From Actinomycetota bacterium (lineage in GTDB: Bacteria > Actinomycetota > Acidimicrobiia > Acidimicrobiales > JAFATL01), in assembly GCA_041166245.1 (NCBI GenBank), contig JBEEFQ010000071.1, forward strand, positions 1-53,464: 53,464 bases of DNA, in the 5' to 3' direction. The notes beneath the pieces were generated by a model, which saw only the letters and a list, made by a program, of their open reading frames with translations, did no database searches and was not told the origin of the DNA. Positions 15,438 to 40,937 of this stretch are shown piece by piece. The translations under genes and the position numbers were made by a program. Every line of letters begins with the position of its first letter. Positions within the stretch are counted from its first letter, which is position 1.

Positions 15438-15498
15438 GGGACGCGAGCGTAGGACGCGGGTGGGTAGCGTTGTCGGTGTCGGCAACGGGGGAGGGTCG

Positions 15499-26567: not shown

Positions 26568-27149
26568 GTGCGTGTGCTGTTGATCACCGCGGCTCTCATG
26601 GCAATGCTGGGGGTGGCCTGTGGTTCTGAGGACGGCGCCGGGCCCCGCGGCAGCGCCGAGACCGTGGTCGGACGCGCCCCCGAGGTGACCGAGGCGGCAG
26701 GCCGGGCCAAGGTCGCGAGCTTCGCACCGAGCAGGCAGGCCGACGGCACCGTCGACCTGCGCACCGGAGCAGCCCGGGTGAAGGAGAAGGGTCCCGGGGC
26801 CGCCAACGCGTTCTTGAGCGATCCCGCGCTCGCCATCGACGTGGTGCGGGGCGCGGTTCGGATCGATACCTTCGGCGGGGTGGGGGTCCAGGGTGTGGGG
26901 ACGATGATGTACGAGATCGACGTGGACCCGGCCAAGGCGGTGGCCGCGGCACCGATCACGCGTCGCGACCGTCTCGCCGAGGTCCTGCCGGCCAAGTCGT
27001 TCTACGCCGACGTGTTCGTCGACACCCAGGGCCGCATCCGCCGGGTGCTGCTGCCCGTCGACCTCACCGTGCCCCGCCAGTACGGGGATTCCAAGATCAC
27101 CAACCAGGAGATGACGGTGGACTTCTACAGCTTCACCAACAGCCCATGA
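26568..27149 (+). CDS. hypothetical lipoprotein
   Basis: GTG 26568 gives VRVLLITAALMAMLGVAC-GS (lipobox). Good GC3 bias. The track start at 26487 is a Pro-rich extension. Confidence 0.6.
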   Translation: MRVLLITAALMAMLGVACGSEDGAGPRGSAETVVGRAPEVTEAAGRAKVASFAPSRQADGTVDLRTGAARVKEKGPGAANAFLSDPALAIDVVRGAVRIDTFGGVGVQGVGTMMYEIDVDPAKAVAAAPITRRDRLAEVLPAKSFYADVFVDTQGRIRRVLLPVDLTVPRQYGDSKITNQEMTVDFYSFTNSP

Positions 27150-28756
27150 ATGGTCACGGCGGCGAGCTGACCCTAGCCACGCTGGCGGGCTATGGCGTCC
27201 GTGAGATCTTCACCCTGTCGGGCGGGCACATCTTCCCGTTCCTCGACGCGTGCGTGAAGGCGGAGACGCGCATCTACGACGTGCGTCACGAGCAGACCGC
27301 GACCTTCGCAGCCGAGGGCATGGCCAAGCTCACGCGCCGGCCGGGCGTCGCCGTCCTCACCGCAGGCCCGGGAATCACCAACGGTGTGAGCGCGATGACG
27401 ACCGCTCACTTCAACGGCGCGCCGCTCGTCGTCCTCGGCGGCCGCGCCCCGCAGGCCCGATGGGGCGCGGGGTCGCTGCAGGAGCTCGACCACGTCCCCA
27501 TCGTCTCGTCCATCACCAAGCTGGCAGCGACGGTGACCGCGACGGCCGACATCCCCAAGCTGGTGAACGAGGCGGTCACGACCGCGCTCTCGTCCCACCG
27601 CGGCCCCGTCTTCCTCGACTTCCCCCTCGACGTGGTGTTCGCCAGCGCGGACGCCGACGTGCCGGCGGCCGTCGTGCCGCGTGGCGCCGACCCCGATCCC
27701 GACGAGGTGGCGCGCGCCGCCGCCCTCATCGCCGGCGCGGAGCGACCCGTGCTCTTCGCGGGCAGCGACGTGTGGTGGGACGGGGCGTGGGAGGCCCTGC
27801 GCCGCTGCGTCGAGGAGCTGCGTGTGCCGACGTTCGTCAACGGCCTGGGACGGGGCACCATCCCCGCCGACCACGAGCTCGTCTTTTCACGAACCCGCGG
27901 CACCATCAAGTCGGAGGCCGACGTGGTCGTCGTCGTCGGCACCCCGCTCGACTTCCGTCTGTCGTTCGGCTCCTTCGGCAGCGCGCAGGTGATCCATGTC
28001 TGCGACAGCCCCGAGAGCAGGGCGGCCCACGCCCAGGTGGCAGCCGCGCCGGCTGGCGACCTCACGACGATCCTCGACGCCTTCGCATCGTTCGCGGGTG
28101 ACCGCAAGGACCATGAGCCGTGGATCGCCAAGCTGCGCGACGAGGAGCAGGCCAAGCGGGCCGCCGAGCGGGCCGACCTGGACGCCGACACCGATCCCAT
28201 CCACCCGGCGCGGATCTACGGCGAGCTGAACCGCAGGCTCGACCGCGACGCGGTCGTCATCGGCGACGGCGGCGACTTCGTCTCCTACGCCGGCAAGTAC
28301 GTCGAGTCCTACCAGCCCGGGTGCTGGATGGATCCCGGCCCGTACGGGTGTCTCGGCACCGGCCTCGGCTACGCCATGGCCGCGCGCGCCGCCCACCCCG
28401 ACCGTCAGGTCGTGCTCCTCCTGGGTGACGGTGCCGTCGGCTTCAACGGCATGGACTTCGACTCCCTCGTGCGCCACGGCCTGCCCGTCGTCGCCGTCGT
28501 CGGCAACAACGGCATCTGGGGGCTCGAGAAGCACCCCATGCGCGCCATCTATGGCTACGACGTGGCCGCCGATCTGCAGCCCGGCTGCCGCTACGACGAC
28601 GTGGTCAAGGCCCTCGGCGGCGCGGGCGAGACCGTCGAGCACCCCGCCGACCTCGGCCCCGCCCTCGACCGCGCCTTCACCGCCGGCGTCCCCTACCTCG
28701 TCAACGTCCTGACCGACCCCGCCAACGCCTACCCCCGCTCCAGCAACCTCGCATAG
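27146..28756 (+). CDS. thiamine-pyrophosphate-dependent enzyme (acetolactate synthase / oxalyl-CoA decarboxylase-like family)
   Basis: N-terminal Pyr domain (VRHEQTATFAAEGMAK, TAGPGITN) and TPP-binding motif GDGAVGF...VVGNNGIWG. ATGA overlap with the upstream lipoprotein gene. Confidence 0.85.
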   Translation: MNGHGGELTLATLAGYGVREIFTLSGGHIFPFLDACVKAETRIYDVRHEQTATFAAEGMAKLTRRPGVAVLTAGPGITNGVSAMTTAHFNGAPLVVLGGRAPQARWGAGSLQELDHVPIVSSITKLAATVTATADIPKLVNEAVTTALSSHRGPVFLDFPLDVVFASADADVPAAVVPRGADPDPDEVARAAALIAGAERPVLFAGSDVWWDGAWEALRRCVEELRVPTFVNGLGRGTIPADHELVFSRTRGTIKSEADVVVVVGTPLDFRLSFGSFGSAQVIHVCDSPESRAAHAQVAAAPAGDLTTILDAFASFAGDRKDHEPWIAKLRDEEQAKRAAERADLDADTDPIHPARIYGELNRRLDRDAVVIGDGGDFVSYAGKYVESYQPGCWMDPGPYGCLGTGLGYAMAARAAHPDRQVVLLLGDGAVGFNGMDFDSLVRHGLPVVAVVGNNGIWGLEKHPMRAIYGYDVAADLQPGCRYDDVVKALGGAGETVEHPADLGPALDRAFTAGVPYLVNVLTDPANAYPRSSNLA

Positions 28757-28819: not shown

Positions 28820-29947
28820 GTGGCGTTGCAGGTTGGCGACGGGAGGGCTCGATCGGTGGTCGAGCCGACGCGCACGTCGGACCCTGCCCACGATGTGTTC
28901 GGCTCGCTCTATCAGGAGCATGCGTCCCGTGTCCGAGCACTTGTACGGCGCCGGATACGAGACAACGGGCTCGTCGAGGACATCGTGCAGGAAACGTTCG
29001 TTCGTGCCCACCGGGGCATCGCGCACTTCGACGATGACCGCTCACCGTGGCCATGGCTCGCGACAGTGGCGCGCAACCTCTGCATCGATGCTGCGCGGCA
29101 ACGGGCCCGGGTCAGAGAAGACCTCTGTGCCGAGCTTCCTCGGGCCGTCCTGGCTCGGTCGGATGCGCACTCCGACCCCCACGCCCGCCTCATGGATCGG
29201 AACCGGTTGCGCGGGCTGAAGGAGGCGATGTCGAGTCTCTCCGACAAGGAGCGGCGGGTGCTCCTGATGAGGGAGGTCGATGGGTTGTGCTACGACGACC
29301 TGGCCGAACTCGAGGGTCTGACGCTGGACGCGATCAAGTCGATGTTGAAGCGTGCCCGACGAACCGTACGCGCGTCATACGCCGCCCTGGCTGACTCGCG
29401 AGGCTTGGCGGGTATCGCCGGGCTGACGGCCAACGCCATGGCCCGTGCGCGCAACCGTCTGGGGCGTGTGCCCCACGCCGCCTCGGTGTGGAGCCGCGTC
29501 GGCTTGCCCCTCGAGGCCATGGCGTCAGCGGTTGCGGCCACGCTCATGGTGACGACGGCGGTCCTTGTCGGCCCCGGGGACGTGCACCCTGGTGGCGGAT
29601 CGATCGGCAACGCCACTCGTGTGGTGCGTCCAGGGGTCGAGCAGCGGTCGGTGGGCCCGACGGAATCGGCACCGCGCGGCGGCTCGAGGGCCACACCGAG
29701 CCCTGGCGGGTCCAAGGCGTCGCTCACCGCGGCCCGCGCCGCGGGGGCCGGGCCGATCGATGCTGGGGCCGACACCGCGTTTCGCCGTGGCGAGAACCTC
29801 ACGCTGAACGCCAAGGTCTTCGCCAAAACCCCCGCGAGGCGGGACCCGCTGGAGGGCGGCGGTTGGGCTGACATCGAATGCATGAAGAACGAAGTGCGAG
29901 AGACGGCGTGTGGCGCTGTCGATCTGATACCGGAACCCGGCGGCTGA
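28820..29947 (+). CDS. ECF-type sigma-70 factor with about 180-aa C-terminal extension containing a predicted TM segment
   Basis: Region 2 (DIVQETFVRAHRGIAHFD, WLATVARNLCIDAAR) and region 4 (LSDKERRVLLMREVDGLCYDDLAELEGLTLDAIKSMLKRARR). These are followed by the hydrophobic AMASAVAATLMVTTAVLVG and a Gly/Pro/Ala-rich tail. Confidence 0.8.
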   Translation: MALQVGDGRARSVVEPTRTSDPAHDVFGSLYQEHASRVRALVRRRIRDNGLVEDIVQETFVRAHRGIAHFDDDRSPWPWLATVARNLCIDAARQRARVREDLCAELPRAVLARSDAHSDPHARLMDRNRLRGLKEAMSSLSDKERRVLLMREVDGLCYDDLAELEGLTLDAIKSMLKRARRTVRASYAALADSRGLAGIAGLTANAMARARNRLGRVPHAASVWSRVGLPLEAMASAVAATLMVTTAVLVGPGDVHPGGGSIGNATRVVRPGVEQRSVGPTESAPRGGSRATPSPGGSKASLTAARAAGAGPIDAGADTAFRRGENLTLNAKVFAKTPARRDPLEGGGWADIECMKNEVRETACGAVDLIPEPGG

Positions 29948-29965: not shown

Positions 29966-30289
29966 ATGGATGCTTTCGATCACAACCGCACGGGATGGTG
30001 GGTCCGCGCAGGTATCGGGTTGGCGGTTTCGGCCTGCGTCCTCCTCGTGTCGCTGGGCTTCTTCCCGGCGTCAGCGATCGCCCAGGCCTGCGCGGTGACG
30101 GGTGCGCCCGAGGCTGGATGTCCGGTGGAGTCGCCACCGGTCAGTCCGCCGCCGCAAACCAGAAACGATTGTTTTGGGGTCTACGTCGGCGGCGTGCGCT
30201 ACCAGAGCTGTCCGCCGCTGCCCATCGTCGTCTCGTTGCTGCCGACGGTGCTCGACGCGATAGACGATCTCATCCACAACCGATCCTGA
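29966..30289 (+). CDS. small secreted/membrane Cys-containing protein
   Basis: 107 aa, GAGGAG SD 8 nt upstream. Signal/anchor WWVRAGIGLAVSACVLLVSLGFFPASAIAQA followed by four Cys residues. No family recognised. Confidence 0.55.
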   Translation: MDAFDHNRTGWWVRAGIGLAVSACVLLVSLGFFPASAIAQACAVTGAPEAGCPVESPPVSPPPQTRNDCFGVYVGGVRYQSCPPLPIVVSLLPTVLDAIDDLIHNRS

Positions 30290-30355: not shown

Positions 30356-31342
30356 GTGATGCACGCGACGGTCCTCGACACCGAGATCAGCTGCCTCTCT
30401 TTCGCCGGCGTCAGCGTGTCGGTGGACGCGCCGCACGACGTGCTGGCGATGGTCCACAGGGAGTTCGGCCCGGCGCCGCCAGAGTCGTCGTTGGTAGCAG
30501 CCTGGCGTGTCGTCGTTCGCTACGAGCCGGACCCCGAGGCCTGTGCTCGCGGCGTCCTGCAAGCCGAGGAGCACCTCCTCATCGCCAACGACCTGGGTGC
30601 CAACCGGGTGCTCTGGGGTGGCCCGGGCGGAGCGGCTGTGCGTGTCTACGAGGGCGGGGTCGGGTTCTCCCAGAGCCGGGACGGATCCACCCTCGTCGTC
30701 GTCCGCGACCACGCCGCCGCGGTCTGGGTCGTTCGATCAGAGATCTGCGCAGCGGTCATGACCTCGCTGGCCGCAGCCTCGTGGACCGTGTTGCACGCCG
30801 GAGTGGTGGCTTCTGATTCGGGCCGTGGCGTCGTGATCGCTGGACCGAAGGGCGCCGGGAAGAGCACGACTTCGTTGTTGGCCTGGCACTTCGGGTACCG
30901 GTTGCTGACTGACGAGGCGTGCTTCTTCACGGAGCGGGACGTCCGCCGTGTGCACGGGCTGCACCGCCGACCCGCCGTGTCGGCGAGCACGGCCCGGGCC
31001 TACGGATTCGACGATCTGCGCCTGGGTCCTCAGCTGCTCGGAAAGCGCCTGGTCAACCTGGAGTGCGATCCGGTGGGTGACTGCTGGCTGGAGGCCGTCA
31101 TCTTCCCGCGCTTCGAGGAGGGTGGATCAGCAGCGTTCGACCTGATGTCCCCAGAAGCCTCCGACGACGCGCTGCAGACGGTGCTGACCAGTGCGCCCAG
31201 CGACGCGACCTCTGCCCTGGACGCCCTGATCGCTGCGGTGCCGTTCTACACCTGGCGATACGGCAGGGACCTACCTCAGAACGCAGAGGCGCTTCGAACC
31301 GAGCTCGGCGAGATCGTCGGTCCGCCGAAGGAGCCGCGCTGA
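30356..31342 (+). CDS. HPr-kinase-related (HprK C-terminal-like) P-loop kinase
   Basis: VLHAGVVASDSGRGVVIAGPKGAGKSTTSL: an HprK-like Walker A preceded by the H-[AG]-[SG] strand, as in RiPP-associated HprK-related kinases. Confidence 0.7.
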   Translation: MMHATVLDTEISCLSFAGVSVSVDAPHDVLAMVHREFGPAPPESSLVAAWRVVVRYEPDPEACARGVLQAEEHLLIANDLGANRVLWGGPGGAAVRVYEGGVGFSQSRDGSTLVVVRDHAAAVWVVRSEICAAVMTSLAAASWTVLHAGVVASDSGRGVVIAGPKGAGKSTTSLLAWHFGYRLLTDEACFFTERDVRRVHGLHRRPAVSASTARAYGFDDLRLGPQLLGKRLVNLECDPVGDCWLEAVIFPRFEEGGSAAFDLMSPEASDDALQTVLTSAPSDATSALDALIAAVPFYTWRYGRDLPQNAEALRTELGEIVGPPKEPR

Positions 31343-32073
31343 TGACGGCAACGGAGAACCTGTCGAGAGTCGAGCTGCCGGCCACCGAGTGGCTGCTCGG
31401 GCGGCTCGATGTTCCGGTCGTCGGATTGATCCATCACGGGTCCACTGCTCTCGGTCTGGGCAACGAGCGTTCCGACATCGACATCCTCGCGCTCAGCCAT
31501 GCCGCGGGTCGCCGGCCGCTCCAGGTCGTTGGGTGGGAGCGATCGGTCCATGTCGACTACCGCAGGCCCAGCGACCTTGATCCCGAGCAGTTGTCCGAGC
31601 TCCTGCTCTCGAGGATGTTCGACACCAACTCGATCGTGACTCGGATATCGACGGGCATCGTCGTCTTCGACACCGACGGCGTGGCCGCCGCGCTCGTCGG
31701 CCGGTTCCGCGACTGGCGCCTGCCTGAGCTGGTGGCCAAGAAGCTGGTGCTGGAGGTGCTCGGCTTTCTGAACGACGTCTCGGGGGCGTTGGGTGACGAC
31801 GAAACCGAGACAGCTGACGTCCTGCTGCGCCTAGTGGCCCACTCCCTGGCCAAGGCCGCGCTGATCGACGCCGGTGTCCACGTCGTGGCCCCGAAATGGC
31901 AGTACCGGCTCCTGGAGCGGCACGCCCCGGTGGCCGCACGTGGCTTCCTCGAAGTCGCCGGACTCGGCGCGGCGCCGTCGGCGCTGACCGCCAGGTACGC
32001 CGCGGCCCGGGCTTGGCTGCGAGAGATTCGTGACCGGTTCGCGCTGCGCGCCGCCACGGGGGACCTGGCGTGA
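31342..32073 (+). CDS. Pol-beta-superfamily nucleotidyltransferase domain protein
   Basis: hG[GS]-x10-DhDh signature HHGSTALGLGNERSDIDIL followed by a helical domain. The start ATG overlaps the upstream TGA by 1 nt. Confidence 0.7.
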   Translation: MTATENLSRVELPATEWLLGRLDVPVVGLIHHGSTALGLGNERSDIDILALSHAAGRRPLQVVGWERSVHVDYRRPSDLDPEQLSELLLSRMFDTNSIVTRISTGIVVFDTDGVAAALVGRFRDWRLPELVAKKLVLEVLGFLNDVSGALGDDETETADVLLRLVAHSLAKAALIDAGVHVVAPKWQYRLLERHAPVAARGFLEVAGLGAAPSALTARYAAARAWLREIRDRFALRAATGDLA

Positions 32074-33281
32074 ACCGGCTCCTCGTCAGGCGCCCCCAGA
32101 TCCTCGGAGTGAGGTCCGATGACGCTTTCCTTGTCTTTGACCCCCGGACAGGTGCGGCCATGCGGGCACCCGCGGAGCTGTCGGACCATTGGTCGGAGCT
32201 CGCCGCGGGCATCGACCCTGCGCTGCTGCCCGAAGCGGCGACGACATCGCTGTTGCGCCGGGGCGTTGTCCGGCTCGTAGAACAGCGCGGCGACCTGTCG
32301 CGGCCGGACCGCGGAGCGGCGCCGCCATTCCGCCGCTCGGCCCAGCCGAGGGTCGAGCTCGACTGTCCCGAGTCCGACCAGCTGCTCCTCCGGGGCCTGC
32401 TGGGGCACGACCACGCCGGTCCCGGACCTGCCCTCAGGATCGAGCTTCGTCGGCGACCGTGTCGTGTCCTGCCACAGGGCTTTGCGCGAGTCGGTGTCGG
32501 GCGGGACTTCGAGGTGTTCGAGCAGGACGCCGCCATGTTGCTCCGGGGCTCGGGCTGGACCGCCGGACTCGAGATCGGCGCGGATGGGGCCAGGTTGCGC
32601 GCTACGTACGAGGACGCGCTCGAGACTGTCCTCGAACCGCTCGTGAAGCTGACCGACGACGCGCTGGCGTGGCTCTACGAGCACCACCGGTTGGGAGTGA
32701 CGCTCCACGCGTCGGGCATCGCTCTCGGGACGGCAGGCGTGGCCCTGTGCGGCGACTCGGGGATGGGGAAGACCTCTCTCGCGGGAGCTCTCGTGCGATC
32801 GAGCGCCGCCTGCTGCTCGCTCGGCGACGACCTCGTGATCGTCACCACTGCGAACGCGGCAGCGCCGATGATGCGGCGGGCACCCTCGGCGCGGTTCACG
32901 CGCAACGGCACTGGTCCGCGGCGCCTCGAGCCGACCGCAGCCTTTTCGGGTCGCGTCGAGCTGCGCATGGTCTGCCTGCTGTCGAGGGTCTCCTCACTGC
33001 GAGTCGACGTGAGCGAGGTTCCCGCGCAGGCAGCGTGGGCGACCCTCATGCGTTCGCGGGCCGCCAGTCGGCGGTACGTCGCCACCGCGGTCCGGCGCCG
33101 GGATCGTGCGCTCGACGAGTGGGTCGCGACCGAGCTGTTGCGCCTCTGCCAAGACGTCGAGACGGCGACCGTCGTGATCGGGGAGGACCAAGTCGGCCGC
33201 GCCGCCCAAGCGGTCCTGGCGCGGGTCGCGCCCCCCGAATCCCGTAGGGAAGCACAACGTCCATCACCGGAAGGGAGGTGA
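32070..33281 (+). CDS. HprK-related P-loop kinase with N-terminal PqqD/RRE-like segment
   Basis: TLHASGIALGTAGVALCGDSGMGKTSLAGAL (HprK-like Walker A). N-terminal AFLVFDPRTGAAMRAPAELSDHWSEL...LLRRGVV resembles PqqD-type peptide-binding domains. GTGA overlap with the upstream gene. Confidence 0.65.
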   Translation: MNRLLVRRPQILGVRSDDAFLVFDPRTGAAMRAPAELSDHWSELAAGIDPALLPEAATTSLLRRGVVRLVEQRGDLSRPDRGAAPPFRRSAQPRVELDCPESDQLLLRGLLGHDHAGPGPALRIELRRRPCRVLPQGFARVGVGRDFEVFEQDAAMLLRGSGWTAGLEIGADGARLRATYEDALETVLEPLVKLTDDALAWLYEHHRLGVTLHASGIALGTAGVALCGDSGMGKTSLAGALVRSSAACCSLGDDLVIVTTANAAAPMMRRAPSARFTRNGTGPRRLEPTAAFSGRVELRMVCLLSRVSSLRVDVSEVPAQAAWATLMRSRAASRRYVATAVRRRDRALDEWVATELLRLCQDVETATVVIGEDQVGRAAQAVLARVAPPESRREAQRPSPEGR

Positions 33282-33286
33282 AGCGC

Positions 33287-33412
33287 ATGACCACGTCCGA
33301 TCGTTCCGAGCCGGGCCGGGAGATCCCGGCATGGGAGCTCGTGGACCTTGACGAGCGGCAGCTCCCGCAGCTGCTCAACGCCATCAAGGCCTGGATAGCC
33401 AGCATCAGCTAG
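33287..33412 (+). CDS. small ORF 1 (41 aa), candidate precursor peptide MTTSDRSEPGREIPAWELVDLDERQLPQLLNAIKAWIASIS
   Basis: ATG sits 5 nt after the kinase stop, with SD GGAAGGGAGG upstream. Paralogous to sORF2 and sORF3. Not in the ORF track because it is shorter than 60 aa. Confidence 0.65.
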   Translation: MTTSDRSEPGREIPAWELVDLDERQLPQLLNAIKAWIASIS

Positions 33413-33437
33413 CCCACTCACGAAGAAAGGAAGCGAC

Positions 33438-33572
33438 ATGGAGCAGGCGAGCTGTCGCACCGATGGGTGCATCGACTCGATGGCGACGTGGGACCTGGTC
33501 GATCTCGACGAACGGCAGTCCCCGATCGCGAAGCTGATCTTCGACGCCGTCCTCGAGTGGGTCATCAGCTGA
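33438..33572 (+). CDS. small ORF 2 (44 aa), candidate precursor peptide MEQASCRTDGCIDSMATWDLVDLDERQSPIAKLIFDAVLEWVIS
   Basis: ATG preceded by GAAAGGAAG. Shares W-x-L-V-D-L-D-E-R-Q and a C-terminal W-V-I-S. The last 15 nt (TGGGTCATCAGCTGA) are identical to sORF3. Confidence 0.65.
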   Translation: MEQASCRTDGCIDSMATWDLVDLDERQSPIAKLIFDAVLEWVIS

Positions 33573-33700
33573 GAAGCGGGCCACCGGTTCCAAGGACCGC
33601 AGCAGAACAGCACGACGGGAGCATCGGATCGGTCGCCCCGTTTCGAATTGCTCGACGGGCTGTCCCAAGAAGCTCATCAAACAACTGACTGGGAGGTCAC

Positions 33701-33814
33701 GTGAAGCCCATCAACTGCAGCGAGTCGGCCTGGAGGCTCGACGACCTGGACGAACGCCAAGCGGCGATCTGGAAGGAGATCGGCATCGCCGTCCTGGCGT
33801 GGGTCATCAGCTGA
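33701..33814 (+). CDS. small ORF 3 (37 aa), candidate precursor peptide MKPINCSESAWRLDDLDERQAAIWKEIGIAVLAWVIS
   Basis: GTG preceded by GGGAGG at 4-nt spacing. Has the same conserved core and the same C-terminal WVIS-stop as sORF2. Confidence 0.6.
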   Translation: MKPINCSESAWRLDDLDERQAAIWKEIGIAVLAWVIS

Positions 33815-33870
33815 CTCGGATCCTGGGGAGGGGCGTCGGCGGCGCCCCCTACCCGACACAGGGAGACCAC

Positions 33871-35085
33871 ATGACTTCCTCTATGACAACCGACCCCCCT
33901 GCTGGTGCCGCTGTGGTGCGGCACGAGCCGGGCGCAGCCGTTGGAGACGTGAAGGTCGATGGGCGGCCCGTCCTGGGCTTCGTCGGCCGCGAACGCTTCG
34001 TCCTGCTGACCGAGCAGCAGCAACGAGTGTGGAGCCTGATCCCGGCCCACGGCTGTTCGACCGCCGAGTTGCAGGAGCATTACGAGGCGGCTTCGGACGA
34101 CGCGGGCGACTGGATCCCCCGTTTCCTGAGCGAGCTCCGGAGCCGGGGCTTTCTCGCAACGCCGGATGGGCCGACCGAGGAGGTTCGAGGCGAGCCGGCC
34201 GTGATGGTGAGTGCGCAGCCGAGCCGGCTCCTGGCTGACGTATCGATTCGCCTGCCCGGCAGGCTCCGCGAGGCGCTGGAGCTGGTCGGTCGATCGGCCG
34301 CGTTGAGCCGTGGTGCGCTTGCGGCCCAGGCGGCCCTGGTGGTCGTCGCGGTCGTGGTGCACGGACGGGACGTTCTGCGAGGCCCCGGCACGGCCATGGC
34401 AGGGTTGGACCTCGTCCACGTCGTGGCGGTCTACGGACTGTTTGTCTTGACGGCGGTCGTGCACGAGCTGGGCCACGCCTTGGCGATGGCGCGTTATACC
34501 GACGCCCCGCGTCGAGGCGGCCTGATGGTGCGGTACGTGCTCTTCGTCGGCTTCTACGTGCGAACCACGGGCGCGTGGGCGCTGCCTCGGCGACAGCGCG
34601 TCATCGTTGGCCTCGCCGGACCGTGGCTCAACTTCGTATGTGGAGCGCTCCTGTTCTTCTCCGGCCATGCCGTCCAGGGCGACGAGGGGGCAACCCTCGT
34701 CGCGGCCGGGTCCCTCAGCGTGCTGGTGGGCGCGCTCAACCTCTTTCCGTTCTTCTTGAAAACGGACGGCTACTACGTCCTCAACGACCTGCTCGAGACG
34801 TCCAACTGGAGGCGCCGTGGTTCCAGCATTGCGCTCGCGATCGTCCGGCGCTCCCGCCCCATCGGCTCGTTGAGCCTCCGCGACCGCATCATCGTCTGGG
34901 CCTTTGTGCTGCAGGCCGGCTTCTGGCTGTTTCTGTTGCACCGGGTGAGCCATGGCCTCTCGCGGCTGACGGGGTTGTCGCCGGTCGCCGTCGTCCTTGT
35001 GTTGGTCGGTGTTCCTCGCCTGGGTCCACTCGGTCGCTACGTTCGAGCTCGGCTTGCGGTCCGGCGCCAGGGAAGGCCGACATGA
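33871..35085 (+). CDS. M50 (site-2-protease-like) membrane zinc metallopeptidase with N-terminal PqqD/RRE-like domain
   Basis: HELGHA in a TM helix plus NLFPFFLKTDGYYV (the NxxPxxxxDG motif of the S2P family). The N-terminal FVLLTEQQQRVWSLIPAHGCSTAELQEHY...FLSELRSRGFL is PqqD-like. ATG 33871 follows GGGAGA. Confidence 0.75.
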   Translation: MTSSMTTDPPAGAAVVRHEPGAAVGDVKVDGRPVLGFVGRERFVLLTEQQQRVWSLIPAHGCSTAELQEHYEAASDDAGDWIPRFLSELRSRGFLATPDGPTEEVRGEPAVMVSAQPSRLLADVSIRLPGRLREALELVGRSAALSRGALAAQAALVVVAVVVHGRDVLRGPGTAMAGLDLVHVVAVYGLFVLTAVVHELGHALAMARYTDAPRRGGLMVRYVLFVGFYVRTTGAWALPRRQRVIVGLAGPWLNFVCGALLFFSGHAVQGDEGATLVAAGSLSVLVGALNLFPFFLKTDGYYVLNDLLETSNWRRRGSSIALAIVRRSRPIGSLSLRDRIIVWAFVLQAGFWLFLLHRVSHGLSRLTGLSPVAVVLVLVGVPRLGPLGRYVRARLAVRRQGRPT

Positions 35086-36635
35086 CCCGTCGGGTCATCG
35101 CCGTTGCCGCCCTCATCGCCGCCTTCCTCGCTGGAGTGCCGATCACGTTCACGGCTGCGGCCGCTGCAGCGGCGGGTCCCCCCGTCCTCGCTGTCATCAG
35201 CACCGGTCTGGACGTCGGTCACGAGCAGTTCGCCTACGGCGGGCCGTTGGACACGACTGACCAGATCGTCGCATGGTGGGACTTCACAGCCACGGTCGCG
35301 CCTTTGCACGAGCCGGACGTCGGACAGATCTGGGACTCCGCGGTGCCGGACCCGTATGACACCGTCGGTGAAGGGACCGCGGCGACATCGCTCGCGGCCG
35401 GCGCGGGCCGGTACGGCGACGCTACGCCGGCGTTGGCGCCCGGCGGTCAGGTGGCGGTGGCCCGGGTGTGTCAGGAGACGGTGTGCGACGGCAAGCTGTC
35501 CGTCGCGATCCGATGGGCGGTCGACACCGTCCAGGCGGACGTCGTGTTGGTGACGCCGGGCTACAGCACGCCTTTCCCGGCGGAGCTCAACTACGTGGAC
35601 GAGGCCGTGCGCTATGCCCGGGAGCATGACGTGCTGGTCGTGGCCGGCCAGAGCTTGGGCTCCCGAGCGACGCCTGCCGAAGGCTCCGTCGGCGCGACGA
35701 ACTCGTTGGTGAACGCGTCGTCGGCGCTGCTTGTCGGGGCCGCGGACGATGCTGCGTGGTCGAGCGGTCGAGAGCTCGTGGTCCCGGCCGGATTGTCGGC
35801 TGCATCGACATCGTGCGCGGCTTGTTACGCGCCGGCGGCCGGACGGACGTACAACCCGCTGGCCGGCGGTTCCTCCGTGCCTGGGTACGTGGCGGGCATG
35901 GCCCTGCAAGCCCGTGCCGAAGCCCAGGCCGCCGGTAGGCCGGCCGACGCTGACCGCATCGAGACGCTTTTGAAATGGAGCGCACGCGACACTGACGCCA
36001 GCCCGGCGACCGAGGGCTACGGCATCCTCGACCGCCCTGCGTTCGACGACGACGTCGTGCCGCACGCGAGGGGAGGAACCCTTCCTGGTCGCCCGGCCCC
36101 CGATGTCAACGCCATATACGTCGAGCGGGTCGCTGGTCCGGCCCACGACGCGTGGACCGAGACGCTGGACGAGGAAGGGCTCAAGCTCCTTGTCCCGACC
36201 CCCCAGCCTGCGGGTTCGGGTGCTGGTCGCATCGCACCTGGCTCGGTGCCCGGGCGGACGGAGGTGGAGTCATACGCCGTGGCCCTGCAGCCGGGTGACG
36301 TCTTTGCGGTCGCCCTCTCCTTGGCCGCCGCCAGCGAGCCCGTGCCCGGCACCAACGACGTCGACCTCTTCGTCTTCGCTGGACGAGGTCCCACCTTCAC
36401 CGGCAGAGACATCCTCGCCAAGTCCGCGAACGGGCCCGGGGCGGACGAACACGTCGAGTACCGGGCCGTGGCCGCCGGGTGGGTGACGGTCGCGGTCGTG
36501 GGCTCGGTCGTGACAGGTGACCAGGACGTGGTTCTGGCCGGGCGGTCCTGGCCGGCGCCGAGCCTGCTCAGCTCCGCACCCGTCCAGATGCAGCTGCAGC
36601 TCAGCGACGAGCGATTCTACGTGGGCACTTCCTGA
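35082..36635 (+). CDS. secreted subtilisin (S8)-like protein with degenerate catalytic motifs and C-terminal PPC (pre-peptidase C-terminal)-like domain
   Basis: Signal peptide MTRRVIAVAALIAAFLAGVPITFTAAAAAAAG. S8-like blocks are AVISTGLDVGH, GEGTAATSLAAG and GGSSVPGYVAGMAL. The C-terminal DVDLFVF...GWVTVAVVG is PPC-like. ATGA overlap with the M50 gene. Confidence 0.7.
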   Translation: MTRRVIAVAALIAAFLAGVPITFTAAAAAAAGPPVLAVISTGLDVGHEQFAYGGPLDTTDQIVAWWDFTATVAPLHEPDVGQIWDSAVPDPYDTVGEGTAATSLAAGAGRYGDATPALAPGGQVAVARVCQETVCDGKLSVAIRWAVDTVQADVVLVTPGYSTPFPAELNYVDEAVRYAREHDVLVVAGQSLGSRATPAEGSVGATNSLVNASSALLVGAADDAAWSSGRELVVPAGLSAASTSCAACYAPAAGRTYNPLAGGSSVPGYVAGMALQARAEAQAAGRPADADRIETLLKWSARDTDASPATEGYGILDRPAFDDDVVPHARGGTLPGRPAPDVNAIYVERVAGPAHDAWTETLDEEGLKLLVPTPQPAGSGAGRIAPGSVPGRTEVESYAVALQPGDVFAVALSLAAASEPVPGTNDVDLFVFAGRGPTFTGRDILAKSANGPGADEHVEYRAVAAGWVTVAVVGSVVTGDQDVVLAGRSWPAPSLLSSAPVQMQLQLSDERFYVGTS

Positions 36636-36796: not shown

Positions 36797-38572
36797 GTGT
36801 TCGATGCCATCCCATGGCGCGGACGGGAAGGATGGGCAGTGACGTTGGAGCGACGGCGGGGGGGACGGAAATGGGTCCCGCTCGTTTCGGTGGCGGTGGC
36901 GTACGTGATGATCGCCACGCTGCTGCCCAACCCGCTGCGGATCCCGACCGACGAGGCGACCGCCACGGCGGAGTTCGCGCCCGTCGTCGGCAAGCGGACG
37001 AACCAGTCGGGCGGGAGTCTCTCCGAGACGGGCTTCGCCTCGAGCGAGGGGCTGGGCTCCGGCGGCGACGGACTCGGTGAGTTCGGCCTCGGCCTCGACA
37101 ACCCGCTGGCCCAGCTGCCCAGCCCTGTCAGCCGGCCCCGCCAGAAGACGTGTTACGGCGATCCCCCGCGCCAGGCAGAGGATCCGCTGTCCCCGCCATG
37201 TGTGGCGTTCTTCGAGGGTGACAACGGGGGCGCCACCTACCCGGGCGTCACCGGCGACAAGGTCACCGCGGTGATGTACGACGGCCTGTCGGACATCCCC
37301 GACGGCGAGGACATGTGCAAGCCCTACAGCGACGAGGACAGCCTCTCCACGCGCACGCTGAAGGCGATGCAGAACTACTTCCAGAAGCGCTACCAGACCT
37401 ACGGGCGTCGCGTCTGCATCGTCAAGCAGGCCGACTCGGGAGTCGAGGACGTCAATCGCAAGGGTGACGCCATCAAGACGGTGCAGGAGTACAACCCGTT
37501 CGCGGTCATGTCCTTCGCCGAGCCCAACGACGACGAGTACCTGAAGCAGATCTCGAAGCAGGGCGTCACCAGCTTCGGTCTGAACTTCTTCCAGCCCCAG
37601 TCGTACTACGAGCAGAACTCGCCCCTGGCCTTCTCCTTCTTCGACACGCGGGAGGAGCACGCGGAGATCACCGCTGCCTACATCTGCGAGAAGCTCATCA
37701 AGAACAAGGTCACCCACACCGACGACCCGACTCTCCGCGGCCAGACCCGCCGGGTCGGGCTCATCTACAACACTGGCGCGGAGTCGGCCGGCGGCGAGGA
37801 TATGGCCCCGGAGATCAAGCGGCGGGCCAAGCAGAAGTGCGGGTTCGAGTTCGCAGCCGAGTTCAAGTACCCCTACGACGCGACGACCTCCGGCGGCGCC
37901 GGCAACTCCCAGGCCATCGCCGACATGCGCAACAAGAACATCAACACCGTGTTCATGATGAGCTACGCCGACGCCATCCTCCTGGCCCAGCAGACGGCCA
38001 GCAACTCCGCCTACTTCCCCGAGTGGTTCGTCAACTCCACGTCGGTGCTCGACGTCGGCCCGGTGGCCCGCGTCTTCTCCGACCCCAGGCAGAAGACCTT
38101 CGGCGTGTCGCTCCGGTGGCGTACGCCGGGCATCAGGGAGACGTTCTGGTACCAGGCGTACCAGAGCGAGCAGCCCAACACGCTGGCCGAGGCCCGTTGG
38201 GGATTCAGCTGGTACTACCTGCTGCTCAACCTCTTCACCGCGGTGCAGGCCGCCGGGCCCAAGCTCACCCCGGACGCCATCGCCCGAGGCATGTTCACGT
38301 TCAAGACCGACCAGCTGGACAATCCCTACGTGCCGAGCGGGGAGTACGGCGAGCCCGCCGACTACGCGTTCGTGAGCTCGTACATGGAGTTCTTCTGGGA
38401 CCCGCGGGGAACGCCGCCGGACGGCAATCCCAGCGAAGGGTGCGTTCGCGTCACCAACGAAGGTCGCCGCTTCAGACCGGGCGGCGTCGGCAGTGACGAG
38501 AGCGGCTTGTTCAACCCGGCATCACCTTGTACCGCTGACATCCGCCTGCTCCAAGACGGAGTGGGCGCTTAA
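36797..38572 (+). CDS. membrane-anchored extracytoplasmic protein, possibly a type-I periplasmic-binding-protein (LivJ-like) fold
   Basis: N-terminal anchor KWVPLVSVAVAYVMIATLL. The about 500-aa ectodomain has alternating beta-alpha character. The start is GTG 36797 or GTG 36839 (after GGGAAGGA). The family call is tentative. Confidence 0.6.
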   Translation: MFDAIPWRGREGWAVTLERRRGGRKWVPLVSVAVAYVMIATLLPNPLRIPTDEATATAEFAPVVGKRTNQSGGSLSETGFASSEGLGSGGDGLGEFGLGLDNPLAQLPSPVSRPRQKTCYGDPPRQAEDPLSPPCVAFFEGDNGGATYPGVTGDKVTAVMYDGLSDIPDGEDMCKPYSDEDSLSTRTLKAMQNYFQKRYQTYGRRVCIVKQADSGVEDVNRKGDAIKTVQEYNPFAVMSFAEPNDDEYLKQISKQGVTSFGLNFFQPQSYYEQNSPLAFSFFDTREEHAEITAAYICEKLIKNKVTHTDDPTLRGQTRRVGLIYNTGAESAGGEDMAPEIKRRAKQKCGFEFAAEFKYPYDATTSGGAGNSQAIADMRNKNINTVFMMSYADAILLAQQTASNSAYFPEWFVNSTSVLDVGPVARVFSDPRQKTFGVSLRWRTPGIRETFWYQAYQSEQPNTLAEARWGFSWYYLLLNLFTAVQAAGPKLTPDAIARGMFTFKTDQLDNPYVPSGEYGEPADYAFVSSYMEFFWDPRGTPPDGNPSEGCVRVTNEGRRFRPGGVGSDESGLFNPASPCTADIRLLQDGVGA

Positions 38573-38586
38573 GCCCCGGAGGAATC

Positions 38587-39633
38587 GTGGCCACTCCTAC
38601 CAACAACCGTCTCAGGTCCAGAGGCCCGCGGCCGCCGCGCCGGGGGCCGAGCGGTATCGACCCGACCGAGTTCAGCCGCAACTTCGAAGCGGTCGTGAGC
38701 AACGTGATGGAGGTGATCCAGGGCAAGGAGGACGTCGTGCGCCTTGCCCTGGTGGCCATGCTGGCCGAGGGCCATGTGCTCTTCGAGGACGTGCCTGGCA
38801 CCGGCAAGACGGTCATGGCCCGGGCCCTGGCCCAGTCGATGAATGCCATCGCCCAGCGCATCCAGTGCACGCCCGACATGCTCCCCGGTGACATCACCGG
38901 TTCGTCGATCTACGACGCGAGCAAGGGCGAGTTCACCTACATGCCAGGGCCGGTGTTCGCCAATGTGCTCCTGTCCGACGAGATCAACCGAGCCACGCCG
39001 AAGACGCAGTCGGCCCTGCTCGAGGCCATGGCCGAGCGCAAGGTGACCGTGGACGGGACGACTCGTCTGCTGCCGCGCCCGTTCCTCGTGCTCGCCACCC
39101 AGAACCCGGTGGAGCAGGCGGGCACGTTCCCGCTTCCTGAAGCCCAGCTCGACCGCTTCCTGTTCAAGCTCTCGGTGGGCTACCCCGACCGCGACGCGGA
39201 GCAGCGGATCATGCTGAGCAACTCCCGCCAGCTCGCCATCGAGGACCTCGGCTCCGTGGTCGACACGCCGGTGATCTCGCAGATGATCGAGTTCGCGACC
39301 GACATCGAGGTCTCCGAGGCCGTCGGCTACTACATCGTCGACCTGGCCCAGGCGACGCGTGCCGACACCGCCCTCATCCTCGGTGCCTCGCCGCGGGCGC
39401 CCATCGCCCTGCTGCGCGCCGCCCGCGTGCTGGCTGCGAGTGACGGGCGCAACGACGTGTACCCCGACGACGTGCGTCACGTCCTCAAGCCGGTGATGGC
39501 CCACCGCCTGATCCTGGCGCCGGACGCCGTGCTGCGGGGCGAGACGGTGGACGCCGTCCTCGACCGCGTGCTCGGCCGCGTCAAGGCGCCGCTCATGGCC
39601 GACGTCACCGGCAAGTCACCCGCGGCCCGCTGA
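38587..39633 (+). CDS. MoxR-family AAA+ ATPase
   Basis: Walker A DVPGTGKTVMARAL, Walker B LLSDEINR, ATQNPVEQAGTFPLPEAQLDRF. GGAGGA SD. Confidence 0.92.
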   Translation: MATPTNNRLRSRGPRPPRRGPSGIDPTEFSRNFEAVVSNVMEVIQGKEDVVRLALVAMLAEGHVLFEDVPGTGKTVMARALAQSMNAIAQRIQCTPDMLPGDITGSSIYDASKGEFTYMPGPVFANVLLSDEINRATPKTQSALLEAMAERKVTVDGTTRLLPRPFLVLATQNPVEQAGTFPLPEAQLDRFLFKLSVGYPDRDAEQRIMLSNSRQLAIEDLGSVVDTPVISQMIEFATDIEVSEAVGYYIVDLAQATRADTALILGASPRAPIALLRAARVLAASDGRNDVYPDDVRHVLKPVMAHRLILAPDAVLRGETVDAVLDRVLGRVKAPLMADVTGKSPAAR

Positions 39634-39643
39634 ACCTCCACTG

Positions 39644-40930
39644 ATGCGCCGCCGTCTCCTCGAGCTCTCAGACCGGTTGCGGGCCAACCTGGCCCTGCGC
39701 CGGATCTCGTCCGTCATCCGGACGCTCGAGCGGCGTGCGGGCATCACCCGCACGGGCGAGGTCGGCATCGTGCTGGCGGTGCTGCTCTGGTTGATGGCGC
39801 GCGTGTTCGCCGGCGTCACGCTCTACCTCGTCGCCTACGGCGCGCTGCTGCTCATCGTCGTGTCGTGGCTCACCGTGCGCCGTCGCCTTCCGCTGGAAGG
39901 GGGGCGCACCGAGCTGCGGGCGCGCGCCCGAGTGGGCGAGGTGCTGACGGTCGGGCTGGAGCTCCGGGCCCGCCGCCGTCTGTCGACCATCGTCTTGGAG
40001 GAGGCGTTGCCGGAGAAGCTCGGGGATCCCGTGCGCCTGCCGATCGCCAGCATCGCGGGCGGTGAGGAGGTCACCCACGAGTACCGGTTGGCCTGCACGC
40101 GGCGCGGCGCCTACACGGTCGGTCCGCTCGTGGCGCGCTGGGGTGATCCGTTCGGGGTCTGCCAGCGGGAGATGGTGCTGGCCGAGCCCTTCGAGGTGCT
40201 GGTGCACCCGGCAATCGAGAACGTCAGCGACCGCCCGCTGACCCGGCAGTTCGAGGACCCGCCCATCCGCCCGCCCGTCTCGAAGCCCTGGCCTTCTGGG
40301 CTCGAGTTCTACGGCATGCGCGAGTACGTGCGGGGCGACGACCTGCGCCGCATCGTCTGGCGGGCGACGGCTCGCACCGGCAAGGTGATGGTGCGCGAGG
40401 CCGAACAGGGGATCACCGACCGCATCACCATCCTGGTCGACTCCGACCGCACGTACCACGGTCGGGAGACACCCTCAGAATCGTTCGAGGCCGCCATCAG
40501 GGCGGCGGCGTCGCTCGGCGTCAAGCATCTGGGCGAGGGCTACAGCGTCACGGTCGAGGCCAACGCGGGCCCGGTCACGCGGGCGCTGCGCGGCGCAGGC
40601 TCGCAGATCCGCATGCTCGACGCGCTCGCTCGGCTCGACATGGACCGTGAGCCGTTGACGTCGAACATCATGCGCCGCGTCTCCGACCCCCGGTCGGACG
40701 CCCACAACATCCTCATCACCCCCCGGCTCAAGCCGGCCGACGCCGCCCAGCTGCGCATGTTGTTGAACCGTGGCCTGTCGGTCCTCGTGATCGCCCTCAT
40801 GTGGGACGACGAGGCGAGCGAGACGCTGAACACGGCGGCCGCGCTGGGGTGCCAGGTCGTGGAGCTCCGGCCGGGCCAGAGCATCGCCGCCGCCATGTCG
40901 ATCGAAGTCGGAGCGGGACAGCGACTGTGA
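39644..40930 (+). CDS. DUF58 domain protein (vWA-like MoxR partner)
   Basis: Two N-terminal TM helices and the DUF58 signature YGMREYVRGDDLRRIVWRATARTGKVMVRE. Confidence 0.88.
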   Translation: MRRRLLELSDRLRANLALRRISSVIRTLERRAGITRTGEVGIVLAVLLWLMARVFAGVTLYLVAYGALLLIVVSWLTVRRRLPLEGGRTELRARARVGEVLTVGLELRARRRLSTIVLEEALPEKLGDPVRLPIASIAGGEEVTHEYRLACTRRGAYTVGPLVARWGDPFGVCQREMVLAEPFEVLVHPAIENVSDRPLTRQFEDPPIRPPVSKPWPSGLEFYGMREYVRGDDLRRIVWRATARTGKVMVREAEQGITDRITILVDSDRTYHGRETPSESFEAAIRAAASLGVKHLGEGYSVTVEANAGPVTRALRGAGSQIRMLDALARLDMDREPLTSNIMRRVSDPRSDAHNILITPRLKPADAAQLRMLLNRGLSVLVIALMWDDEASETLNTAAALGCQVVELRPGQSIAAAMSIEVGAGQRL

Positions 40931-40937
40931 GCCACCG

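Follow-up and report, generated by a model that had tools for sequence, protein, structure and literature searches.

Daptides, linear polyphosphorylated peptides (LPPs) and phosphorylated lasso peptides are the described systems closest to the locus analyzed here, which occupies positions 30356-36635 of a 53,464-nucleotide stretch (the window; contig JBEEFQ010000071.1, assembly GCA_041166245.1) whose NCBI record carries the source label 'MAG: Actinomycetota bacterium' (MAG, metagenome-assembled genome). The locus encodes two HprK-like kinases (A and C), a nucleotidyltransferase (NTase, B), three small peptides (p1-p3), an M50 protease (G) and a subtilase-like protein (H). As judged from its gene content and motifs, it is very probably a maturation operon of the type that serves peptides made by ribosomes and modified after translation (RiPPs).

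Daptides are known from the mpa cluster of Microbacterium paraoxydans (Ren et al. 2023, PMC10036551; see also the preprint of Dommaraju et al. 2025). They derive from several tandem precursors, which have a leader ending in ELExMEAP, a branched-aliphatic helical core and, as C-terminal residue, an invariant Thr that is modified. The peptidase MpaP, a fusion of a RiPP recognition element (RRE) with an M50 domain, removes the leader by cutting after ELExMEAP, and the modifying enzymes act on the carboxylate and backbone of the C-terminal residue (PMC10036551).

LPPs are cyclase-free linear RiPPs from Bacillota (Popov et al., Nat Commun 2026, PMC13381572). Their primary enzyme is an HprK-like kinase, and their clusters also encode an NTP transferase, a discrete RRE and a leader peptidase of the signal-peptidase type; LppK phosphorylates Ser3 of the LPP core (PMC13381572). 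A kinase can therefore itself be the class-defining enzyme of a RiPP system. Among lasso peptides, PadeK and PsmK (poly)phosphorylate the C-terminal Ser side chain of the paeninodin and pseudomycoidin precursors, and the nucleotidyltransferase-family protein PsmN is required for the addition of hexose to the phosphate (PMC6993621).

In addition, kinases A and C best match the two models of the HPr-rel-A system (TIGR04352, kinase A; TIGR04355, kinase B), which likewise has two paralogous kinases. A PqqD-family protein and a nucleotidyltransferase are further members of this system. No paper describing it was found in our searches, and none describing the gene combination of the present locus.

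The initial annotation of this DNA had concluded that the combination matches no known RiPP class, which overlooks the daptide-like precursors and protease as well as the LPPs. From the comparisons below, the closest functional likeness of the locus would be a tailoring module of the LPP or phospho-lasso kind placed on a chassis of daptide type. For each of the modules there is a precedent, and the hybrid combination is undescribed.

Genomic organization of the locus

The eight open reading frames (ORFs) are co-directional and tightly coupled (Table 1), and these frames and all their junctions agree exactly with the initial annotation. A single base is common to A and B (cTGATGa), the overlap of B with C is GTGA, the ATG of p1 follows C after a gap of 5 nt, and G and H overlap by ATGA. 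Further gaps, not given before, measure 25 nt between p1 and p2, 128 nt between p2 and p3, and 56 nt between p3 and G when the ATG at 33871 is taken as the start of G. Alternative starts of G are a GTG at 33799 and position 33913, the latter from the JGI metagenome annotation; for C, both the JGI and NCBI annotations use 32160.

In this window, with a GC content of about 70%, the GC content at third codon positions (GC3) is 0.82-0.92 in all eight frames, which is of coding type, against 0.56-0.64 in non-coding frames. Each of the three small ORFs has a Shine-Dalgarno-like GGAGG/AAGGA site 5-9 nt upstream, and all three were annotated by both the JGI and NCBI gene callers. Together with the shared leader motif described below, these features support the earlier view of a RiPP-like maturation operon with three precursor-like small ORFs. 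A scan for promoters and terminators inside the operon gave nothing above chance, which fits a single transcript.

The large genes of the cluster have GC3 values of 0.82-0.85, against 0.90-0.93 in the flanks (27146-28756 and 36797-43184). This lower GC3 hints mildly at horizontal acquisition of the operon.

Table 1. Features of the locus and of its flanks, with positions in the window; leader and core of the precursors are divided at the predicted boundary.
Feature	Position	Strand	Length (aa)	Remarks
Kinase A	30356-31342	+	328	
Nucleotidyltransferase B	31342-32073	+	243	
Kinase C	32070-33281	+	403	
Precursor p1	33287-33412	+	41	leader MTTSDRSEPGREIPAWELVDLDERQLP; core QLLNAIKAWIASIS; GC3 0.88; MEY2475595.1
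Precursor p2	33438-33572	+	44	leader ending ...SMATWDLVDLDERQSP; core IAKLIFDAVLEWVIS; GC3 0.89; MEY2475596.1
Precursor p3	33701-33814	+	37	GTG start; leader MKPINCSESAWRLDDLDERQAA; core IWKEIGIAVLAWVIS; GC3 0.92; MEY2475597.1
M50 protease G	33871-35085	+	404	
Subtilase-like H	35082-36635	+	517	
ECF sigma factor	28820-29947	+	375	Sigma70_r2 and r4 matches
107-aa ORF	29966-30289	+	107	one hydrophobic segment (single transmembrane); several Cys; coding-like GC3; JGI-called
MoxR AAA+ / DUF58 / TgpA transglutaminase operon	38587-43184			downstream of the cluster

Precursor peptides

The products of the three small ORFs are paralogous peptides of 37-44 aa, and p1 is homologous to the peptides of two related metagenomic loci, L006 (45 aa, MNTQTNEEVVEEVEVWDLIELDDRQLP / QLLTWLKEKALELKSLFT) and L131 (34 aa, MDSVEPTEDSWKVVDLADRETP / ALLHAIISWLLS). 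The leader motif W-x-[LV]-x-[DE]-L-x-[DE]-R-[QE]-x-[PA] is common to all five precursors; in p1-p3 it takes the form W-x-L-x-D-L-D-E-R-Q followed by x-[PA]. Searched as DNA, the motif is present at three places in the window, with an expectation of 0.00 from 100 shuffles. No NCBIfam or Pfam model matched the peptides.

After the leader, p1-p3 have a hydrophobic or amphipathic stretch and end in -IS. The predicted cores have 14-15 residues in p1-p3 and 12-18 across the five precursors. The net charge of the p1-p3 leaders ranges from -2 to -5, and that of the predicted cores is +1, -1 and 0, respectively. The last residue, Ser in four of the five precursors and Thr in the fifth (L006), is the sole hydroxyl residue conserved in all of them, and in p2 and p3 the C-terminal Ser is the only Ser or Thr of the predicted core.

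The genes of p2 and p3 are 73% identical over 89 nt, and five of their six synonymous codon differences fall inside the leader motif; this concentration of synonymous changes points to selection acting on the protein. In another sample, a 504-bp contig (P0045, ENA) carries a variant of p3, MKPINTNESAWRLDDLDERQAALWKEIGIAVLAWVIS. It differs from p3 at two leader positions and at one core position (I to L), and indicates that a related strain exists elsewhere.

Predicted leader peptidase and subtilase-like protein

G, an intramembrane metalloprotease of the M50 family, has about six transmembrane segments, and its catalytic motifs HExxH (HELGH, aa 198, nt 34462) and NxxPxxxxDG (NLFPFFLKTDG, aa 290, nt 34738) are intact and lie within such segments. 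It matches Peptidase_M50 above the cut-off (E 5.7e-9, 36.1 bits). The best NCBIfam match is daptide_HExxH (E 4.8e-27, 95 bits, cut-off 300) and the next best is the RiPP protease of the epipeptides, YydH/LiaK (E 4.2e-10). Residues 28-96 resemble PqqD (Pfam E 0.09; hhalign to a PqqD alignment E 0.002 over the whole domain), so that a PqqD-like RRE at the N-terminus of G is moderately supported. G is thus predicted to be the leader peptidase, a relative of the daptide protease and not its equivalog.

H has a hydrophobic export-type N-terminus (aa 1-39) and a PPC-like C-terminal region (PPC, E 0.013). It matches Peptidase_S8 with E 5.9e-4 (19.7 bits, cut-off 21.8) and the mycosin model with E 1.5e-7 (30.9 bits, cut-off 278.75); a search of PDB sequences gave no match even at E 10. 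A weak BLASTP alignment to subtilisin places a Ser at the position of D32 (LAVISTGLD). In a weak alignment with a home-made subtilisin hidden Markov model (HMM), the N155 position is probably Gln (VVAGQS) and the Ser of GTSxA is kept as GGSS. A Glu at the position of His64 (GEGT) was read from the sequence by eye. H is probably a secreted or membrane-anchored protein that lacks the catalytic Asp and His and is not a canonical serine protease. Its membership in the system is based solely on the ATGA overlap with G, as the L006 and L131 contigs end before this point. Co-translated with G, H might act in binding, immunity or secondary trimming.

In the HMM searches every domain named in the initial annotation was recovered; most scores were weak and that of M50 passed its cut-off. 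Of the two peptidase-like genes then proposed, the S8-like one probably encodes a protein with an incomplete catalytic set, so that a second peptidase is doubtful.

A site-2-type M50 protease next to an exported subtilase-like protein also brings to mind regulated intramembrane proteolysis, in which the 107-aa protein encoded upstream would hold the extracytoplasmic function (ECF) sigma factor, H and G would be the site-1 and site-2 proteases, and the kinases, the NTase and the peptides would be accessories. Classical site-2 proteases are M50 enzymes, H has an export signal, and the genes for the ECF sigma factor and the single-transmembrane ORF lie directly upstream on the same strand. We consider this arrangement very improbable, however, since the best matches of G are RiPP leader peptidases, its N-terminus is PqqD-like rather than PDZ, H probably lacks two catalytic residues, the M50 gene directly follows the peptide gene in L131, and in L006 a GerE regulator takes the place of the ECF sigma factor, which is thus not conserved.

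Kinases A and C

Both kinases retain the HprK/P catalytic set, that is, the His of LHA, a G-x-x-G-x-G-K-[ST] P-loop and an acidic pair, DD in C and DE in A. The corresponding motifs are LHAG (nt 30791-30802), the Walker A sequence GPKGAGKS (30842-30865) and LTDE (30905-30916) in A, and LHAS (32703-32714), GDSGMGKT (32751-32774) and LGDD (32820-32831) in C. The Pfam domain Hpr_kinase_C was matched with E 0.002 by A and E 0.009 by C. Kinase A matched HprK_rel_A (E 2.7e-10, 39.8 bits) and kinase C matched HprK_rel_B (E 1.1e-4, 21.5 bits); the alignments are confined to the P-loop region and the curated cut-offs are 200 in both cases, so the proteins are not equivalogs of the HPr-rel-A kinases. 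A is 31-35% identical to the kinases P0003 and P0004, which come from lasso-type operons with the order NTP_transf_5-PqqD-B2-kinase.

A bona fide HprK was rejected for both proteins, in agreement with the initial annotation: the scores against TIGR00679 were 18.2 and 17.0 bits, with a cut-off of 240, and no ptsH or other phosphotransferase system gene was found among the ORFs scanned with Pfam in the window (the locus genes and 30 flanking ORFs, which are nearly all the other ORFs of coding composition).

Kinase C consists of an N-terminal beta3-alpha domain (aa 1-65), a disordered linker and the HprK-like kinase. A profile of the C family searched against the PDB had HprK/P 1ko7 as top match (E 3.9e-5), and with an AF2 model of C (pLDDT 71) the top Foldseek ranks went to HprK/P and PEPCK folds. 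A separate model of the N-terminal domain (pLDDT 69) shows three strands plus helices. Its best PDB matches are RREs, namely TbiB1 (E 0.06, template modelling score 0.53), TigE, PbtF, LynD/TruD and lasso B1, with E-values that are not significant. From these models, the region of about aa 1-65 is a possible RRE.

Among distant relatives of kinase C (alignment A3), the model of the lasso PqqD chaperone is additionally hit by one (E 3.4e-6), and that of ScmC, a protein of the SynChlorMet cassette, by three. Judging by these matches, HprK-like kinases recur across several peptide-modification contexts and are sometimes fused to an RRE.

Nucleotidyltransferase B

B has the signature of the Pol-beta fold, with hGS (31432-31443), SDIDIL (31471-31488) and a third carboxylate in HVDY (31549-31560), in the spacing hGS-x9-SDxD plus HV[DE]. 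Conservation within the system is highest for B, which is 47% identical to its L006 homologue, and GS...DxD...HV[DE] is invariant across all three loci. Its match to NTP_transf_2 has E 8.7e-4 (20.1 bits, cut-off 21). No similarity was detectable to the PF14907 (NTP_transf_5) enzyme of a lasso-type operon, and the NTase profile, run against the PDB, gave nothing informative (HalB, E 0.075).

B also has a faint match (E 0.025) to an MntA-antitoxin NTase and the peptides are short and hydrophobic, which would suit a toxin-antitoxin or anti-phage module with the NTase and kinases as effectors and the peptides as membrane toxins. PADLOC, on the other hand, gave no defence signature, its best result being a negligible 12.8-bit match. 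An acidic conserved leader, an RRE and an M50 protease of the leader-peptidase type are RiPP hallmarks, and the three tandem peptides are paralogs with variable cores. A toxin-antitoxin or defence module is thus extremely improbable and was rejected.

Comparison with known systems

As in the daptides, the locus belongs to Actinomycetota and has multiple tandem short precursors, a core rich in branched-aliphatic residues, a C-terminal hydroxyl residue and a predicted leader peptidase in which a probable RRE is fused to M50. The leader ends also resemble each other: E-L-E-x-M-E-A-P of the daptides and D-L-D-E-R-Q-x-P of the locus align at an acidic residue, Leu, a second acidic residue and Pro. 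The leaders are nonetheless not the same and the cores of the locus family are shorter (12-18 aa). The daptide Thr is invariant, whereas p1-p3 and the L131 peptide end in Ser and that of L006 in Thr. Among the locus genes and the 30 flanking ORFs scanned, there is no DUF-RRE protein MpaB, alcohol dehydrogenase/oxidative decarboxylase MpaC, aminotransferase MpaD or methyltransferase MpaM, and of the daptide models only that of the protease was matched, below its cut-off. In their place the locus has two HprK-like kinases and an NTase, with a predicted anionic (phospho) tail instead of a cationic one (Dmp). A true daptide cluster was rejected on these grounds.

With the LPPs, the locus would share a linear product formed without a cyclase, modification of one Ser by a kinase of HprK type, the presence of an NTP transferase, RRE-dependent recognition and a set of one to three precursors; its HprK-like kinases have intact motifs and no macrolactam cyclase was found in the scanned ORFs. 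LPPs, however, are restricted to Bacillota, and they use the archaeal-type signal peptidase I LppS, the discrete RRE LppB and an MsbA-like exporter, whereas the locus has the RRE-M50 fusion. Pfam and NCBIfam scans in and beside the operon found no signal peptidase, discrete PqqD protein or ABC exporter. The LPP leader YxxPxVLxHQxIxFETxxS is absent from all five peptides of the locus family. LPP precursors have 35-200 aa and are phosphorylated at Ser3 of the core, while the locus has two kinases, an unrelated leader and no evident exporter. B is a small NTP_transf_2-like protein, and it was compared with the PF14907 enzyme of a lasso-type operon and not with the family of LppN.

The likeness to phosphorylated lasso systems lies in the pairing of an HprK-like kinase with a nucleotidyltransferase, in the conserved C-terminal Ser/Thr and in the identity of kinase A to lasso-type kinases. 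The locus has, however, neither the macrolactam synthetase (lasso protein C) nor the B2 cysteine peptidase, its leader is not of the YxxP type, its NTase is of a different family and its product must be linear.

The scanned window ORFs include no Asn_synthase-type cyclase, B2 peptidase, radical SAM, YcaO or lanthipeptide (Lan) enzyme, which bears out the initial annotation in its claim that a lasso cyclase or other core enzyme is missing; nor was an iron-containing alcohol dehydrogenase (Fe-ADH, PF00465), an aminotransferase (PF00202) or a methyltransferase found among them. The only transglutaminase-like protein is TgpA, 4 kb downstream, which is not a lasso B2. These results bear on the idea that only part of a known cluster is present here, either a lasso cluster of paeninodin type or a daptide cluster, with the core enzymes encoded elsewhere in the genome. 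A kinase and an NTase are typical tailoring genes of lasso clusters (PMC6993621), the peptides and protease are daptide-like (PMC10036551), and about 6 kb of the 59.8-kb source contig (NCBI proteins MEY2475592-99) lie outside the window. Even so, a fragment is very improbable: besides the missing enzymes, the leaders do not have the lasso signature YxxP...T(-2), no Asp/Glu recurs at a fixed place within positions 7-9 of the cores, the last residue of four of the five precursors is Ser and not the daptide Thr, and the same minimal gene order occurs in two independent loci. A lasso cluster was therefore also rejected.

Related loci

When A, C and G served as queries in word-indexed searches of 5.8 billion proteins, nothing was retrieved except the locus itself and, for A, two distant kinases of lasso type. 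With C, 1.84 billion representative proteins were scanned by HMMER in filter-only mode; of the 31 matches, P0006 and P0007 alone were informative. Both lie in loci of the same gene order, and both keep the His, P-loop and DD of kinase C. The genomic contexts of P0008, P0010 and P0013 were uninformative.

The first of these loci, L006 (Logan SRR14005099, 4.3 kb), has a divergent GerE regulator followed by homologues of A (35% identity), B (47%) and C (32%, full length) and by the 45-aa peptide, after which the contig ends. In the second, L131 (JGI 3300060355, 2.2 kb), a partial A homologue precedes homologues of B and of C, the latter without the N-terminal domain, and the 34-aa peptide is directly followed by the start of a G homologue (pairwise tblastn of its N-terminus, E 2.8e-6) at the contig end. 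The order A-B-C-peptide is thus kept in both of the other loci found. A test proposed in the initial annotation was whether homologous neighbourhoods conserve the small ORFs, and in both cases one lies directly after the second kinase. For the co-occurrence with the M50 gene, also proposed there, L131 agrees and the contig of L006 ends too early.

A search for related loci with the NTase alignment retrieved none from metagenome or genome collections. The loose DNA pattern of the leader motif gave no real case in GTDB genome contigs among the matches listed, at least 120, and a tighter pattern gave four matches in metagenome contigs, none of them real. The locus is very rare and close to a singleton.

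Two metagenomic operons, L001 (3119-5999) and L002 (2661-5448), have the order NTP_transf_5 - PqqD - Transglut_core3 (B2) - HprK-like kinase, with no cyclase among the called genes. They could be incomplete lasso clusters or another cyclase-free system tailored by a kinase.

Proposed function

Taking genes, motifs and analogies together, it is reasonably likely that the locus makes linear peptides which are phosphorylated on the C-terminal Ser/Thr and released from their leader by the M50 protease; we are less confident of the exact chemistry. Which molecules the enzymes act on, where and how these are modified, in what sequence the steps run and where the leader is cut are all inferred. In the first step, the leader would be bound by the PqqD-like RRE of G and possibly also by the N-terminal domain of C. 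A and C would then use ATP to phosphorylate the C-terminal Ser/Thr hydroxyl, perhaps repeatedly, in the manner of PadeK, PsmK and LppK. B would extend the phosphate with a nucleotide- or sugar-derived group, as in the PsmN-dependent hexosylation, or would nucleotidylate the peptide directly. Finally, G would cut after the x-[PA] that ends the leader motif, by analogy with MpaP, and this cut would be linked to the peptide's release at the membrane. Linear helical peptides of 14-15 residues (12-18 in the related loci) with an anionic modified C-terminal tail would result.

A RiPP operon could also run a different chemistry with the same genes. The modification might fall on the C-terminal carboxylate, as an acyl-phosphate or acyl-adenylate, on an internal residue or on a Ser/Thr of the leader, or one kinase might be a non-catalytic scaffold and the NTase might AMPylate the peptide. 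Such schemes would suit the difference in family between B and both PsmN and LppN, the action of LPP kinases on Ser3 and not on the C-terminus (PMC13381572), the modification of the C-terminal carboxylate or backbone by daptide enzymes (PMC10036551), and the pairing of kinases, which as in the HPr-rel-A models hints at a two-step or heteromeric reaction. We consider them unlikely, however, in view of the Ser hydroxyls phosphorylated by the HprK-family enzymes with known substrates, of the C-terminal Ser/Thr as the only conserved hydroxyl and the sole one in two cores, and of the full catalytic motif set kept in both kinases.

Phosphorylation of the C-terminal Ser/Thr thus remains our preferred reading, and the following points weigh against it. 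The mechanism is derived from sequence (genes, synteny, motifs and intact catalytic residues), with the peptides as putative substrates, and the three loci, two of them truncated, make thin co-occurrence statistics. The cleavage site is assigned by analogy, with a motif that matches that of the daptides at four of eight positions. Family scores of the kinases, the NTase and the S8-like protein are below the curated cut-offs, those of the kinases far below. B is not of the PF14907 type used by pseudomycoidin-like and LPP clusters, and LppN had no detectable activity in the LPP study (PMC13381572). The initial annotation had placed PqqD/RRE-like segments in the enzymes; that of G has moderate support, but in kinase C neither Pfam nor hhalign against PqqD detected one, and one of its two homologues, that of L131, is without the domain. 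No exporter or immunity gene is evident. Furthermore, the proposal gives no reason for two kinases rather than one.

Under the same proposal, the locus may tentatively be seen as the founding member of an undescribed actinobacterial RiPP family, an assignment about which we remain in some doubt. In such a family a daptide chassis would be rewired to a kinase pair and an NTase of a new family, and the C-terminal Ser/Thr would carry a phospho-linked, possibly nucleotidyl or glycosyl, group as an anionic tail. By the naming habits of the RiPP field, the locus could earn a family name of its own.

If this is true, one precursor and protease chassis would carry two unrelated C-terminal chemistries, a cationic diamine in the daptides and an anionic phospho-tail here, and the RRE-M50 chassis would be combinable with unrelated chemistries. 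Linear RiPPs defined by a kinase, so far the LPPs of Bacillota only, would extend to Actinomycetota with a different leader peptidase. The system would also give a first functional handle on the paired kinase A and kinase B relatives of HprK, named by NCBI and uncharacterised, and its small leader-guided enzymes for C-terminal Ser/Thr modification would be useful in peptide engineering. With only three loci in several billion proteins, the family would be missed by mining based on co-occurrence. It would represent known modules in a new combination, without a new principle, and the case for it rests on three metagenomic loci.

Genomic surroundings

Upstream of the cluster, the sigma factor domains of the ECF protein are found only in residues 24-184 and are followed by a C-terminal extension of about 190 aa. 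The 107-aa ORF lies directly upstream of kinase A, and its product could be an anti-sigma factor or an immunity protein. Both are possible regulators of the operon, with uncertain membership; the arrangement is not conserved, since L006 has the divergent GerE regulator.

Downstream of the cluster, a protein that looks like a solute-binding protein, judged by reading its sequence, precedes the MoxR operon. Further on, a 988-aa ORF (46268-49234) with MFS_1 and double ABC_tran matches adjoins a branched-chain amino-acid permease gene; it represents either an uncommon fusion or an artefact that arose because the longest ORF was chosen. The first part of the window contains a tandem pair of genes for dynamin-like GTPases (4253-6055 and 6052-7521) and, at 12918-17358, two divergently placed Hsp70-like genes, one of them with DUF6777.

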